Shown: positions 2,785 to 62,020, counted from the first letter of the stretch. The stretch: DNA of 64,000 nucleotides from Eledone cirrhosa (GCA_964016885.1 OZ024758.1:30938001-31002000), one strand, 5' to 3'. Notes: generated by a model not told the origin, from the sequence alone. Program-made: numbers and translations.

Positions 2785-2911
2785 TTAGGGTAAACATTAA
2801 TGCAATTCAATTCAAGCACTCAACGTACTTTTTCCACATAGGAGTGACGGAGTAAATATCGAATAAAGAAAAGCGAAGTAGTTTCAGATGTTCAAATCCT
2901 ATAATAATAAT

Positions 2912-2985
2912 GCTGTGATATATATTTCAGTGACGACACTGGCCACACTGTTCTGTGTGCGAGTGTCATGTCATCATCGGACAGC
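2912..2985 (-). ncRNA. Type I hammerhead ribozyme, variant core CCGAUGA
   Basis: Inverted copy of 3132-3205. Confidence 0.65.
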
Positions 2986-3131
2986 TTGTTACATAATAAG
3001 GTTATGTTTTCGAGGCAATCCAAATTGGATCGACAAGGGAACAGATGAATTGCGTGTTTTGGGGTTTTTCATCCGCTCCCTTGTCGATCCAATATGGATT
3101 GCCTCGGAAACATAACCTTATTATGTAACAA

Positions 3132-3205
3132 GCTGTCCGATGATGACACGACACTCGCACACAGAACAGTGTGGCCAGTGTCGTCATTGAAATATATATC
3201 ACAGC
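3132..3205 (+). ncRNA. Type I hammerhead ribozyme, variant core CCGAUGA
   Basis: gctgt-CCGATGA-tgac...gtca-tt-GAAA-tatata-TC-acagc; stem I gctgt/acagc. Confidence 0.68.
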
Positions 3206-3215
3206 ATTATTATAT

Positions 3216-3412
3216 AAGGCAGTGGATTGGCAGTATCGGTAGAGGGTCGGACGCCATGCTTTGACGCATAGAGTTACGGCCCTTGCCATTCTGAGTTCAA
3301 ATCCCGCCGAGGTTAACTTTGCCTTTCATCCTGACGGGGTCGATAAAATAAAGTACCAGTAATACACTGGATAATTGCTGGCCTTGTGCCTAACGTAGAA
3401 ACAATTATTATT
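3216..3412 (+). mobile_element. tRNA-derived SINE (family A, octopus-type)
   Basis: A-box-like tggcagtatcggt, B-box gagttcaaatcc, body gcctttcatcc..ggggtcgataaaataaagtaccag, (ATT)n tail; many copies in the window. Confidence 0.9.
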
Positions 3413-3536
3413 AAAGGGCTTGAACATCTGAAACTACTTCGCTTTGCTTTATTCTATATATATATATATATATATATATATATATATATATTCAATGATA
3501 TTAAATAAATGGAAACTATATTTATAAAACCATATT

Positions 3537-3597
3537 TATTCTATTATATATATTTCAAGGGTACCAAAACTTTGGTACGATTTCATCAGATAAAATA
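3537..3597 (-). ncRNA. Type I hammerhead ribozyme
   Basis: tattttat-CTGATGA-aatc gtaccaaa/tttggtac cctt-GAAA-tatata-TA-atagaata. Confidence 0.75.
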
Positions 3598-4036
3598 CAA
3601 AGTTTGTTTCATAAATTTTGACATAACCAAGAAAAAGATACCTTAACGGTTCAAGTTTTCCTTGGATAGTGAAGGGATAAGAGAAGAAAAGTCAGACATT
3701 TCAAATTATTAAGATGAGTATGCAAATGAGGTTCAGGTATATTGAATATCCCTTTTGCTTATATATATATATATATATATATATATATATATATATATAT
3801 ATATATATATATATATATATATATATATATTTCGTTTCTGAATTTGTTTAGCAAGATTCTTTATCTGAAAACGTGTGTTGAAACCGATATTGTTATACTT
3901 TGGGGGGGTCATGTTGCCAATAAGAAACACACGCACAAGTTGCTTTCACTTCAGTTTATTATATATTTATAAATTTACAAATTTATAAATTTCTGGTTGG
4001 TTGGTTGGTTCCACAACCAGATAGTTGTTTATATAT

Positions 4037-4081
4037 AGTCATAGTTCTTTCGTCACACACTCTGTGACCTCTTCAGTGACT
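4037..4081 (-). ncRNA. Minimal type I hammerhead ribozyme in PLE 3' UTR
   Basis: Inverted copy of 7416-7460. Confidence 0.85.
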
Positions 4082-4280
4082 GGGGATTCCTTTCTTTGTT
4101 TCTGTGCCTCTCCTTTGTTCTGTCCTACGCCATTTTGTTTATGTGTGTGTGTTGTGTGCTCAGTCTGCGCATGCGCCACATCCGGGTGTCTGTGTGTGTT
4201 TATGTTCATTTTTTATTTGTTTATTTACATGTTACTGGTTGGTTGTTTGTTCTATGTGTGTGTGTGTTTTCATTTTGTCC

Positions 4281-58520: not shown

Positions 58521-58944
58521 CATGGATGTCTTCCACATTGATGTAGCTTTTAATGTGTTTATTATCGGGCTATCTTTTCTACGGGTTTTTCTATGTATGT
58601 GTGTATGTATATATGTATGTATTATGTATGTATTATGTATGTACGGATGTGTGTGAGTGTATGTATATATATGAATGACTGGATGATGTAAATATGTTTA
58701 TAATATATGTATGTATGTATGAATATATGGACGGATGGATGTAAATATGTATGTATGTACGTATGTACCAGTGCATGCATACAACTGTATATTTGTACAA
58801 TCCTTGCACTCTTCCCAACTCTTGTAATATCTGAAACATCAACATTTCTTTTAATCTCTTTACAGCCGCATTGTCGTTGGTTTCTGAATCAGTTTTTTTA
58901 AATAATTTATTCTTCAGTTCTTCAACTAATCTCTAAAACTTTGT

Positions 58945-60538
58945 GTGTAGATCGATAGATAGATCGATAGATAGAGAGATATATTTCTTTATTAGCCACA
59001 AGGGCGCACAAGAAAAGGGGACAATACAAAGACATTTCGGGGATTTTACATACAATCGTGTAAAAAATATAAAAACAAACAATTGCAACAATCGAAATCC
59101 CCAATAGGGGGGAAGCGCCAGAAATAGGTTGTTTAATACCCCGTCGATAGAACAACCCTCAACGCCAGGAGCGTGTTGTGCAAGTGCTCCTTTCTTCCTT
59201 TTGCTCTCTCCTTCAAGCTACAGGCTTATAAACAGAGAAGGCCCAATCACTCGGGCCATTTTTGTTACATTCACCCACCTTTCAGTAAATTTACAGGGGT
59301 GCAGTGCCTCTCTCTCCACTCTGATTCTCCTTCTAAAGTGATACTTAAAGAAGGGAATCAATTGTTGTCCGGAGAGAAAGGCATCTGTCCTCAGTCCTCT
59401 CAATCTCGTCCACCATATAACTTCTTTCACCATAGCCACCGTACAGAGGAAAACCGCCTCTCTTTCGTTTTTGAAAGAGGCTGGCGGTTTGATCCTTACT
59501 ATGGACTCGGCAGTCAACTGGATTTGTCCCATACGCAACAGCAGTTGTTCTGCATAGTTCTGCAAGTCGGTTACACCCGGGCAGTGTACAATTGCGTGCA
59601 GGACTGTTTCAATGTCCTGCGCGCATCTTGGACACGTCCTCTTGGAAGGATCCCTGCCGGAGCGTCCGTGCTTGCAGATCTTGTCACGAATCAGGTAGAG
59701 CTCCTCGGTAGCACTGCCAGGCCAGGGACCTCTGGAAGTTGTCCATAGGTCCCGGGCGGAAAGTCCTACCAAACAGACTGGTGAGCTCATCGTCGTCGAC
59801 GCCTAGAGTCTCTCCGAGCACGTCGTCGCCCTTGTAACGTACAATCCCTCTATAGAATGTCCAAGTGGAGTCTCCACTGATTGCTGTGCCCGCTTGCCAG
59901 AGGACTGTGAGCGCCTCCGTCATCGAGACGAGCTGTGGGAAAGCCTCTCTCACAAACAATGCCCACACCGGGTGGGGGTCGGTGAGGAATACCTGGAGAT
60001 GCCGCAGCCTCAGCGCATGTTTGCGCATGATCAGCCACGGCATTCCCAGCCCTCCGTTGGAAGGGTGCTGAAAGCAGACGGATCTCCTCACCAGCGGAGC
60101 CTGCTTCTTCCACAGAAACTGGAAGAGCATGCGTTCCATCTTGGCGAGGTGTTCACGGGGACAAGGCACGACAGTCAAGCGGTAGTAGATGACGGACGCT
60201 ATGAAAGTGTTCGCCACCTCCGCTCGACCTTTCAAGGACAGTTTGCACTCTGCCCACTTCTGGATGAGTGCAAACACCTTGGCCGTGACCTCGTTCCAGT
60301 TTTTCTCCATCTGGAGGTCTGGACCGAACCAGAGCCCGAGCAATTTCACCGGTCCGTCCGTCCAGCGTCCAACGACGCTGTCGGACGTCAACGGTTCGCC
60401 TCTCCACGTACCGAGTTGCAAACCGACAGACTTGTCCTGGTTTAGTTTTGCTCCCGTCAGCGTTTCGTATTCTTTCAGTAAGTTGCCGATCACCCCGATT
60501 TCCGAGGTGCTCGACACCATTACCGTCACGTCGTTGAT
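58945..60538 (-). mobile_element. Tx1-like (L1 group) LINE, 5'-truncated, with (TATC)n tail
   Basis: GAKLNQDKS, KLLGLWFG, LSLKGR, GGLGMP, CPRC..ETVLHAIVHC zinc knuckle, AATAAA followed by (TATC)n. Confidence 0.92.
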
Positions 60539-60560
60539 ATGTATTATTAAAAAAAATAAT

Positions 60561-60972
60561 AATACATATCAACATTTTCTTTCCATCGCACATATTATTG
60601 AACCCTTAAATATTGTTCTTAATACGTATTAACATTTTCTTTCCATCGAACATATTATTGAACCCTTAAATATTGTTCTTAATACGTATTAACATTTTCT
60701 TTCCATCGAACATATTATTGAACCCTTAAATATTGTTCTTAATACGTATTAACATTTTCTTTCCATCGAACATATTATTGAACCCTTAAATATTGTTCTT
60801 AATACGTATTAACATTTTCTTTCCATCGCACATATTATTGAACCCTTAAATATTGTTCTTAATACGTATTAACATTTTCTTTCCATCGAACATATTATTA
60901 GACCCTTAAATATTATTCTTAATACATATTAGCAATTTCTTTTCATCGCACATATTGTTGAACCCTTCAATA
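60561..60972. repeat. 60-bp tandem repeat, about 7 copies
   Basis: Unit aacattttctttccatcgaacatattattgaacccttaaatattgttcttaatacgtatt. Confidence 0.97.
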
Positions 60973-61258
60973 TACAAACCTTAACTTTACATTATTTTTC
61001 CCTTCGTTAATTTTCAAATTCTTTTAATTTATACATTATCTTCCAACGGTTTTTCAACCTCTCTATGTAAAACAATATATTTTTTCCAGTTATAAAAGCT
61101 ATCTCTCTCTCTCTATCACCCATCTCTCCTCCTATCTCATCCTTCCTCATTATACTCCTCCCCCTCCACTTTTTACTCTCATCTCCTCCTCTTTTTCACC
61201 CCCCCCCCTCAAAAAGTTTTTTTCCCCAATATCACACATCAATCTAAAACTACTTTTC

Positions 61259-61514
61259 ATATGTTGATTTAAAACTGCACTATCCACAAGTGTTTTTAAC
61301 CTTCATATCATGTCTTCCTATTTTATCTGATGAAAACACAAATGTTATTGCATGATGATATTTTTTTTTGAAATGCGCATAATAAAATACATGGAACTCA
61401 TTTAACCATCTTTTGATCTTATATATTATGTATACTCCAGTCCTACAACTGTAGAGTGCTTCTTATCCGATATCTGCATTGCTTTATTGTACTACAATAA
61501 AACTCACCTCCTAC
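61259..61514 (+). mobile_element. tgcgca-family element; HHR at 61319-61389
   Basis: tattttat-CTGATGA..GAAA-tgcgca-TA-ataaaata; homologous to 21998-22255. Confidence 0.82.
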
Positions 61515-61670
61515 ATATATATATATATATATATATATATATATATATATATATATATATATATATATATATATATATGTATATATAAATATGTATATAT
61601 ATATATATGTATATATGTATATATATTAATTCAAATATTAACAAAATAGATATTCTTGTGATCATGTATA

Positions 61671-61733
61671 TTTTATTATACATATTTCAGAGGTACTGAG
61701 TTAACTTTAACAGTACGTCCTCATCAGATAAAA
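61671..61733 (-). ncRNA. Type I hammerhead ribozyme
   Basis: ttttat-CTGATGA-ggac gtactg..cagtac ctct-GAAA-tatgta-TA-ataaaa. Confidence 0.72.
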
Positions 61734-61955
61734 CCAAAACCGGTTGAGTGCTTCCAATGTATTGTAAAACTCATTCTTTGATTTATTCATTGAACCTTGT
61801 TTATCTTTTAAATATATATATATATGTAAAAGTTCTATTTAAATTGTTGGGATACAACAAGCAAATATTTTTATAACTGATATAAAGCACTCAACAAATA
61901 TTTGGAGTAAAAATACGATATTAACAAATGGAAACTATATTTATAAAACCATATT

Positions 61956-62020
61956 TATTTCATTATACATATTTCAAGGACACCAAGTTAAATTATGGTG
62001 TGCTTTCATCAGATAAAATA
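61956..62020 (-). ncRNA. Type I hammerhead ribozyme (homolog of 47592-47656)
   Basis: Same core and stems, inside element 61825-62140. Confidence 0.78.

Follow-up and report, generated by a model that had tools for sequence, protein, structure and literature searches.

The window analysed here is a stretch of 64,000 nucleotides (nt) from the octopod Eledone cirrhosa (GCA_964016885.1 OZ024758.1:30938001-31002000). It carries 35 hammerhead ribozyme motifs, 29 with an intact core and six variants, which fall into 11 families. Very probably, these hammerheads mark the 3' ends of several families of Penelope-like elements (PLEs) and of non-coding tandem units for which PLE proteins likely do the copying in trans. 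Positions are counted from the first base of the window, a sign after a position gives the strand of a hammerhead or tail hairpin, families are denoted by letters, and genomic loci by numbers preceded by L. The insertions are as follows.

535-2549, minus strand: older relative of family A (54-69% amino acid identity); second piece at 9645-10299, with the decayed hammerhead 9830-.
2786-3454, unstranded: two-armed insertion of family B, split by a short interspersed element (SINE); hammerheads 2980- and 3137+, both U4C (genomic majority CUGAUGA); tail hairpin 2853-.
3492-3636, minus strand: family C sister stub; hammerhead 3589-.
3831-7606, minus strand: broken PLE of family A; tail of about 56 nt at 3831; inverted 3' arm 6351-7606; hammerheads with core starts at 4076- (cut 4042) and 7421+ (cut 7455).
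7970-8838, plus strand: family D copy; hammerhead 8592+; tail hairpin 8705+.
8893-9364, unstranded: family C sister palindrome; hammerheads 9081- and 9267+; tail on the left arm only, with hairpin 8974-.
18735-20374, minus strand: family M; Hydra-type endonuclease remnant 19710-20243 and 3' untranslated region (UTR); U4C hammerhead 18996- with a long stem II; partial inverted arm 20214-20369.
21119-21801, plus strand: family I monomer (702-nt unit); broken hammerhead 21502+; tail hairpin 21693+.
21822-22258, unstranded: family E palindrome of Hydra-type PLE 3' ends; hammerheads 21921- and 22066+; tail hairpin 22175+.
22311-25108, plus strand: young PLE-B element; GIY-YIG 23219-23887; inverted UTR arm 22305-23202; tail at one end; further piece 18226-18840.
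25122-25578, minus strand: family F monomer; hammerhead 25430-.
25580-26010, plus strand: family D copy; hammerhead 25893+.
26007-27125, unstranded: two-armed insertion of family G (524-nt unit); hammerheads 26201- and 26826+; variant tail hairpin 26419-.
32540-32776, plus strand: family H copy; hammerhead 32671+.
33088-34618, unstranded: family F array of two 422-nt head-to-tail units (33896+, 34318+) and an inverted copy (33449-).
35340-35595, plus strand: copy of the 35448 family; hammerhead 35448+, G12 lost.
36399-36577, plus strand: family C sister stub; hammerhead 36463+.
42662-43111, minus strand: family F monomer; hammerhead 42965-.
44612-44927, minus strand: family I sister, 70% identical; hammerhead 44918- with a long stem II.
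45327-45716, unstranded: family E sister; hammerhead 45422-; right arm without a core.
46210-46640, unstranded: family C sister palindrome; hammerheads 46318- and 46438+; tail hairpin 46549+.
46863-47412, plus strand: family F copy; hammerhead 47147+.
47552-48010, unstranded: family C palindrome of Hydra-type 3' ends; hammerheads 47648- and 47810+; right-arm tail of about 95 nt with hairpin 47914+.
54522-54898, unstranded: family H copy; hammerhead 54620-; inverted arm with tail hairpin 54806+.
61150-61515, plus strand: family E 3' end; hammerhead 61327+; tail hairpin 61434+.
61608-61733, minus strand: family C sister stub; hammerhead 61727-.
61813-62446, minus strand: family C 3' end, with part of the UTR folded back at 62145-62446; hammerhead 62012-; tail hairpin 61908-.

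The motifs are real type I hammerheads, with CUGANGA, GAAA and UH set among stems I, II and III in the type I order; 17 lie on the plus strand and 18 on the minus strand. Heptamers of the form CUGANGA occur 45 times on the two strands, compared with 17-19 times in dinucleotide shuffles (maximum 28). A strict type I descriptor gave 15 matches, against 0.03-0.13 in 30 shuffles and none in the reversed sequence, and the final descriptor gave 28 exact-core matches, against a mean of 0.06 (maximum 1) in 100 local shuffles. The descriptor was relaxed three times after inspection of the motifs, because many of them had a mismatched basal or fourth pair in stem II. Once a long stem II was allowed, 44918- was recovered as the twenty-ninth intact-core motif. 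No match was found among the window hammerheads with Rfam at gathering thresholds. Three of the variants have a U4C core (2980-, 3137+, and 18996-); among the others, 9830- has lost stem I, as judged by eye, 21502+ has lost U16.1 in the window copy while 18 of 19 genomic copies pass, and 35448+ has lost G12. In family B, U4C is present in both window arms and 9 of 14 genomic cores are canonical. Further families also contain U4C cores (L046:9646+, L073:4736+, and L207:1029+). Another descriptor match, 45041+, was taken as chance and left out of the count.

That the motifs as a whole are chance matches in AT-rich repetitive DNA is next to impossible. It is true that chance alone would account for about 17-19 of the 45 bare heptamers and that the descriptor was relaxed after inspection, but the excess over shuffles in the window refutes this explanation. 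The excess also holds in stretches outside the tuning of the descriptor, where 50 motifs were found against 1.0 in shuffles; these form the genome sample, 57 ten-kb stretches at round coordinates with the window flanks excluded (569,400 bases; small and non-random). Moreover, loop III is palindromic, a feature that the descriptor does not demand. An earlier note on this DNA had counted about 30 intact-core motifs and about seven variants in about 10 families, which agrees well with the present numbers, and two of the outcomes that it named as refuting were not seen: the density is not matched by shuffled sequence, and the stems covary around an invariant core. Its statement that almost every non-SINE island between (TA)n tracts carries a motif was too strong, as 24 of 60 inter-TA islands do (islands with SINEs, long interspersed elements (LINEs), and simple repeats included).

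The architecture was compared over 85 motifs from the window, the genome sample, and two flanks, which represent 28 sequence types; related types are not independent, and part of stem II is used by the descriptor. Among 27 types, 23 have a self-complementary loop III (the null model has a mean of 5.3, and 0 of 5,000 draws reached this value). Several pair types occur at stem I pairs 1-4 and stem II pairs 2, 3, and 5 across the 28 types, partly through selection by the descriptor. Position 10.4/11.4 of stem II is unpaired in 16 of 21 types (C.C in 9) and lies between covarying pairs. At this fourth pair, a C.C or C.U mismatch is conserved in 13 of 21 types, from families B, C, D, E, and H; it could be a site of tertiary contact or of protein binding. 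Many octopod motifs have a long stem II (up to about 100 nt), and the hammerheads of family A have an extra base after A9 and G10.1-C11.1. In family F contigs, variants of at least 10% within the motif fall on the stem I partners 33893 and 33929 and on loop position 33922, and none on the core; they are unphased, and the run may be the assembly's own sample.

Ten of the motifs could be traced to the 3' pseudo-long terminal repeats (pseudo-LTRs) of coding PLEs, namely three in each of families A, E, and C and one in family M. Families C, E, and M are Hydra-type and family A has a Neptune/Nematis-type linker; the corresponding clades (Hydra for C, E, and M; Neptune or Nematis for A and PLE-B) are putative assignments by motif rather than by tree. 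Single open reading frames (ORFs) with a reverse transcriptase (RT) and, at the C terminus, a GIY-YIG domain reach 1,239 codons in A, 784 in PLE-B (GIY-YIG by Pfam), and 821 in E. Partial tandem pseudo-LTRs, an inverted 5' copy, and a tail at one end, all typical of PLEs, were found. In family A, the frames encode an RT, a CX4CxxC linker, and GIY-YIG, and 5 of 7 loci have the hammerhead on the 3' side of a frame of 1,016-1,239 codons; L009, L010, and L012 have it on the 5' side of the frame as well. The proteins are 93-100% identical in amino acids among 114 scored matches, contain DKS, and lack GxKF/Y; the closest relative is an Octopus vulgaris protein (70% identity). The linkers before GIY-YIG in A and PLE-B, CIDKKCITC and CDRPNCGIC, fit the CX2-5CxxC of Neptune or Nematis.

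For family E, a walk upstream from 22066 led to an endonuclease frame. The 821-codon frame is flanked by hammerheads on both sides in 2 of 3 fetched loci, and the third shows the 3' one. It contains RWT at the N-terminal position of the RWK motif, DKT (SDKT), YRDD, CxCX5C (CNCRIKNKC), CxxC (CNLC), and CxH (CLH), and no GxKF/Y. In family C, 8 of 14 loci have a Hydra-type endonuclease in the same orientation 1.5-1.9 kb upstream, and L233 has both pseudo-LTRs with a hammerhead; the coding frames of this family were found only in broken form. The CxCX5C linker is present in both C and M, and Hydra-type proteins are 94-100% identical among 150 scored matches. The link to Penelope-like RT/GIY-YIG elements drawn in the earlier note is supported by pseudo-LTR hammerheads in the Hydra-type and family A coding elements. 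Its description of most motifs as non-autonomous is not supported, as the families of 22066 and 47810 are coding Hydra-type pseudo-LTRs and that of 4076 and 7421 has frames of up to 1,239 codons. Eight further motifs belong to sister subfamilies that share flanks, and tails where present, with C or E. A decayed Hydra-type RT fragment, 34-39% identical to family E, lies at 31606-32182 on the minus strand.

PLE-B, a very young family with many identical copies, shares TA targeting, the inverted arm, and the tail; many of its frames have 784 codons, and amino acid identity is 98-100% among 150 scored matches. No type I hammerhead with up to two mismatches was found in three loci, and a full copy has no sense-strand CUGANGA, as any permuted form would need; variant cores were searched for in type I topology. 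In L129, PLE-B has a second frame of 455 codons upstream. Canonical hammerheads have been called universal in such PLEs (PMC8557442, in the parts available), and a supplement to the same paper lists a (TA)n preference for Hydra-1_Obim of Octopus bimaculoides.

Another 12 of the 35 motifs belong to the non-coding tandem families F, G, I, and B, with units of 422, 524, 702, and about 1,300 nt, respectively. F, G, and I consist of head-to-tail units with one type I hammerhead each, whereas B is tandem by period and sequence, the core of the compared B copy being mutated. Family F is seen as single units, as partial tandems, as inverted pairs, and in arrays that reach about 8 units (L114). Searches with tblastn against four PLE proteins gave no match for B, F, and G, nor for the flanks of I in the window; 1 of 19 family I loci has a weak upstream match, read as a neighbour. 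Judging from their sequence, B, F, G, and I are retrozyme-like and likely copied in trans by PLE proteins. Further tandem hammerhead arrays occur outside the window at L040:9335-9955 (period 310 nt), L054:6638-7694 (528 nt), and L073:456-3366 (about 482-490 nt).

The tandem units could also have arisen from PLE pseudo-LTRs and spread mainly as DNA, by unequal crossover or duplication with no RNA step. Long local arrays, with about 8 units in L114 and 7 motifs in L073, would suit such a course, and local amplification after PLE landing has been proposed by Li et al. (10.64898/2026.07.22.740005, in the portion available). However, copies that are 95-98% identical are dispersed over many chromosomes, and they bear the signature of PLE insertion, i.e., one or two fixed ends in (TA)n, 5' truncation, and inverted arms, which makes spread as DNA very unlikely.

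The insertions end at (TA)n tracts and are often two-armed. Two 3' ends, about 90 nt apart, were found in families C (27 and 28 of 67), E (20 and 20 of 52), and B (6 and 7 of 25). Between the arms of family C, divergence is 0.8% within a locus and 2.4% between loci, a private change is common to both arms in 6 of 11 loci, and no column separates tailed from tail-less arms; 3 of 14 loci had been dropped owing to short arms or tails on both sides. We infer that each two-armed insertion arose from one RNA template. The copies retain 60-250 nt downstream of the cut site; therefore, the template RNA must have been uncut there, as in the PLE PAc. Nested insertions at 8674-8907, 17975-18112, and 30653-30888 place the tail of one family inside the TA junction of another, so that fresh TA junctions are reused as targets.

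Short palindromes of this kind might instead be taken for fold-back DNA transposons similar to miniature inverted-repeat transposable elements (MITEs), spreading from a fixed master with the hammerheads as passengers. When a query spanning the centre was used, nearly all scored family C matches were indeed palindromes with a common centre. That pattern was a product of the query. When a single arm is used instead, the 5' ends are variable and 5 of 24 copies continue into a shared UTR leading to the Hydra ORF, and family C was rejected as a palindromic mini-element of fixed centre. Furthermore, the arms group by locus and not by side, 11 of 14 loci have a tail at just one end, and neither a fixed-length master nor symmetric ends were found. 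A DNA transposon origin is thus largely refuted and extremely improbable.

The tails of B, C, D, E, H, I, and J share a hairpin whose outer stem is ACUC/GAGU, with 2 nt bulged on the 3' side and inner pairs that covary, and that of G has a UCUC/GAGA version. It begins 5-11 nt after the tail-less end, and a second hairpin lies about 7 nt behind the tailed end, detected by the motif in E and by eye in C and B. In the window, the motif is found 26 times compared with 5.5 in shuffles, and in the genome sample 98 times compared with about 55; of these 98, 44 are no more than 120 nt from a TA tract. In a control for bulge length, the 2-nt bulge stands out in the window (28 vs 10-20). Its position and covariation suggest that the hairpin is a start signal for the RT. 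Family J is present as palindromic stubs in TA tracts at 10787-10983, 20695-21038, 32317-32523, 43886-44054, and 54295-54364, with the hairpin and with no hammerhead within the stubs; it is probably the 3' end of another Hydra-type element.

A mechanism can be proposed from these features and from the Poseidon element PAc, whose enzyme cleaves both strands, extends each of them, and begins copying at two internal sites bounding its tail (PMC11167929, as far as its available text goes). By analogy with the Poseidon enzyme described there, the GIY-YIG domain would cut both strands of a (TA)n tract, and the RT would start at two internal sites of one RNA, giving a tailed and a tail-less arm that face outwards. 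The hairpin 5-11 nt behind each 3' end would mark these start sites for Hydra-type RTs, and the non-coding families B, G, and I, as well as D and H, would ride along by keeping it. Copying would mostly halt within a few hundred bases, so that mainly the hammerhead-bearing end is kept. Each new TA junction would be a further target, and the motifs likely accumulate because the PLE endonuclease repeatedly targets (TA)n. The balance tips slightly towards the full form of this proposal, in which the bulged hairpin behind both 3' ends directs the Hydra-type, telomerase-related RTs, retrozymes hijack them by keeping the hairpin, and the partnership gave the largest hammerhead load that the literature search turned up, about a quarter of a million.

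Several observations weigh against the PLE origin of all the motifs or against this mechanism. The eight sister motifs could not be connected with an ORF: in 29 loci of the 46438 subfamily, the 1.5 kb upstream contains no match to a PLE protein, and a genome search with the 9081 subfamily, in which common words are skipped, gave no match. Five motifs (in D, H, and the 35448 family) are placed in neither the coding nor the tandem non-coding group: family D has no ORF in about 2 kb of shared upstream sequence, most copies of H have one common start point, and the 35448 family has one other copy with GAAA. A Hydra ORF in L204, considered as a partner of D, was ruled out, as other insertions intervene and the ORF matches family M. 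The ribozyme appears dispensable for such insertions, because PLE-B shares the architecture with no detectable hammerhead. Changes shared by both arms could also be explained by gene conversion after insertion, and the second peak of 3' ends is inflated by tail-bearing queries. In the genome sample, the 2-nt bulge is not distinct from other lengths (236 vs 97-240). The hairpin was not found in the examined stretches of the tails of A, PLE-B, and F, so that it points to no partner for F, the commonest tandem family of the window. Cleavage, RNA products, and circles are predictions from sequence and folding.

Folding predictions bear on what the motifs would do in host RNA. Helix III does not fold alone as a monomer hairpin in any of 33 matches (one probable chance match included), while a favourable helix III self-duplex is predicted for 29 of the 33. 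A near-identical antisense copy lies upstream within 4 kb for 18 of the 35 motifs; where an insertion is two-armed, transcription always reaches the antisense arm first, and all four palindromes that were folded have a fully paired core. Dimerisation in cis is predicted to be possible only for head-to-tail copies, such as 33896 and 34318. With its self-complementary loop III, a ribozyme would cut only when paired with a second copy in a head-to-tail transcript, and monomers or circles would be set free, as happens in known retrozymes. For most copies, poor cutting of host RNA is therefore predicted: those that lie singly or inverted in host transcripts would be largely inactive, and the inverted ones would form long double-stranded RNA. 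If transcribed, inverted arms would be a source of long double-stranded RNA, which may matter in animals where RNA editing is heavy.

The earlier note had suggested that the motifs could cut any transcript crossing the region, and it is quite improbable that all families are non-autonomous and cut host transcripts on either strand. Motifs do lie on both strands (17 and 18), the non-coding tandem families hold 12 of the 35, a single read-through RNA might allow 33896 and 34318 to dimerise, and an estimated 260,000 motifs in the genome make some intronic cuts likely. Yet at least 10 motifs are in coding PLEs, and the folding results, with no helix III formed alone, the paired palindrome cores, and the upstream antisense copies, argue against cutting of any crossing transcript. 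Published work, as far as the available text goes, points the same way, the activity of PLE hammerheads being weak, confined to dimers, or dependent on protein: a single minimal PLE hammerhead gave no cleavage (PMC4209133), the PAc hammerhead needed protein (PMC11167929), and 8 of 9 Xenopus dimers were uncut (10.64898/2026.07.22.740005). A dimer-type design has been described for minimal PLE hammerheads (PMC4209133), and the ribozymes of coral retrozymes are reported to be fast (PMC7229834).

The genome sample contains one motif per 11 kb, and extrapolation to a genome of 3.0 Gb gives about 263,000 motifs (bootstrap 173,000-373,000), an estimate that omits motifs with a long stem II (three more in the sample). 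The density of the window is 5 times the sample average; since the sample yields one motif per 11 kb, the one per 2 kb given in the earlier note is a local value, whereas the very large genomic load that it foresaw is supported by the estimate. A (TA)6+ tract lies within 300 nt 3' of 26 of the 35 motifs (null 9.9; maximum 18 in 2,000), in line with the claimed (TA)n targeting, and TA content correlates with hammerhead count across the 57 stretches (rho 0.57). The earlier picture of a PLE-driven mobilome was half right: the PLE link, the (TA)n targets, and the large load are supported, and the mostly non-autonomous nature and the cutting of any transcript are not.

The window also contains a LINE-type RT frame at 28600-29925 (Pfam RVT_1, 441 codons) and inverted copies of another LINE-type element with zf-RVT at 58948-60568 and 62693-63937. 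An abundant SINE, which we take to resemble octopus SINEs, occurs at 3216-3413, 12889-13439, 27797-28194, 35780-36164, 38643-39433, 40475-40739, 41074-41174, 43146-43345, and 43562-43792, often in tandem or inverted pairs; one copy splits the family B insertion. Minisatellites occupy 55945-57432 (24 nt x 62), 60560-60973 (60 nt x 6.9), and 14159-14280 (31 nt x 3.9).

Overall, the hammerheads are explained by known kinds of element, pseudo-LTR hammerheads of PLEs and retrozymes, in unusual numbers. A literature search, with subscription papers and Repbase largely outside its reach, found neither a paper on the tail hairpin nor a hammerhead survey of cephalopods. What hammerheads do in PLEs, how the tails and inverted arms arise, and which enzyme mobilises animal retrozymes are unsettled in the field. 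This genome makes these questions directly testable, as it pairs three kinds of young intact enzyme with non-coding passengers, a shared and naturally covarying candidate start signal, and, as a control, a young family in which no hammerhead was detected. As for the load, 126,247 motifs were counted in axolotl with another descriptor (PMC7229834), and the octopod estimate is twice that count in one tenth of the DNA, the descriptors being different.

The following comparisons extend to the available portions of the papers cited. Families C and E, and M by its endonuclease, resemble Hydra clade PLEs (PMC8557442) in an RT followed by a GIY-YIG-like domain, in CxCX5C, CxxC, CxH, and DKT (the last in E), and in the canonical pseudo-LTR hammerhead, (TA)n targets, inverted arm, and optional tail. 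Yet the tails are 30-40 nt in the Hydra clade and about 90-95 nt in C and E, RWK is replaced by RWT or RWR, and the octopod 3' UTRs are 0.8-1.9 kb long. That paper lists few Hydra clade families outside cnidarians, whereas the putative octopod ones are young and abundant. With PAc (PMC11167929), the octopod families share two 3' ends split by a tail that runs into the ORF start, with the hammerhead upstream of both; the PAc start is an AC-rich stem-loop, and the Hydra-type group has a conserved bulged hairpin after each end, as read from sequence data.

Family A resembles the minimal hammerheads of metazoan PLEs (PMC4209133) in the extra base after A9, G10.1-C11.1, and the minimal helix III. 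The motifs here also share with them the palindromic loop 3 and the occurrence mostly as solo motifs or as opposite-strand pairs 100-700 bp apart, which have already been ascribed to truncated PLEs. Unlike those, many octopod stems II are long, with a C.C or C.U mismatch at the fourth pair, and the 2,000-9,000 minimal motifs per genome reported in other animals compare with about 260,000 here, under different descriptors.

Finally, F, G, I, and B resemble metazoan non-LTR retrozymes (PMC7229834; 10.64898/2026.07.22.740005) in non-coding head-to-tail units with one type I hammerhead each, AT-richness, monomer-to-multimer forms, and co-occurrence with PLEs; retrozymes are usually 150-450 nt long, and the units here, at 422-1,300 nt, are at or above this range. 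The 2026 preprint (10.64898/2026.07.22.740005), which sampled 31 vertebrates, 3 insects, and one coral, argues that retrozymes descend from PLEs as non-autonomous elements, and cephalopods are not mentioned in the available text of PMC7229834. Unlike known retrozymes, the octopod insertions, as seen at the DNA level, carry a PLE tail and an inverted arm in (TA)n.

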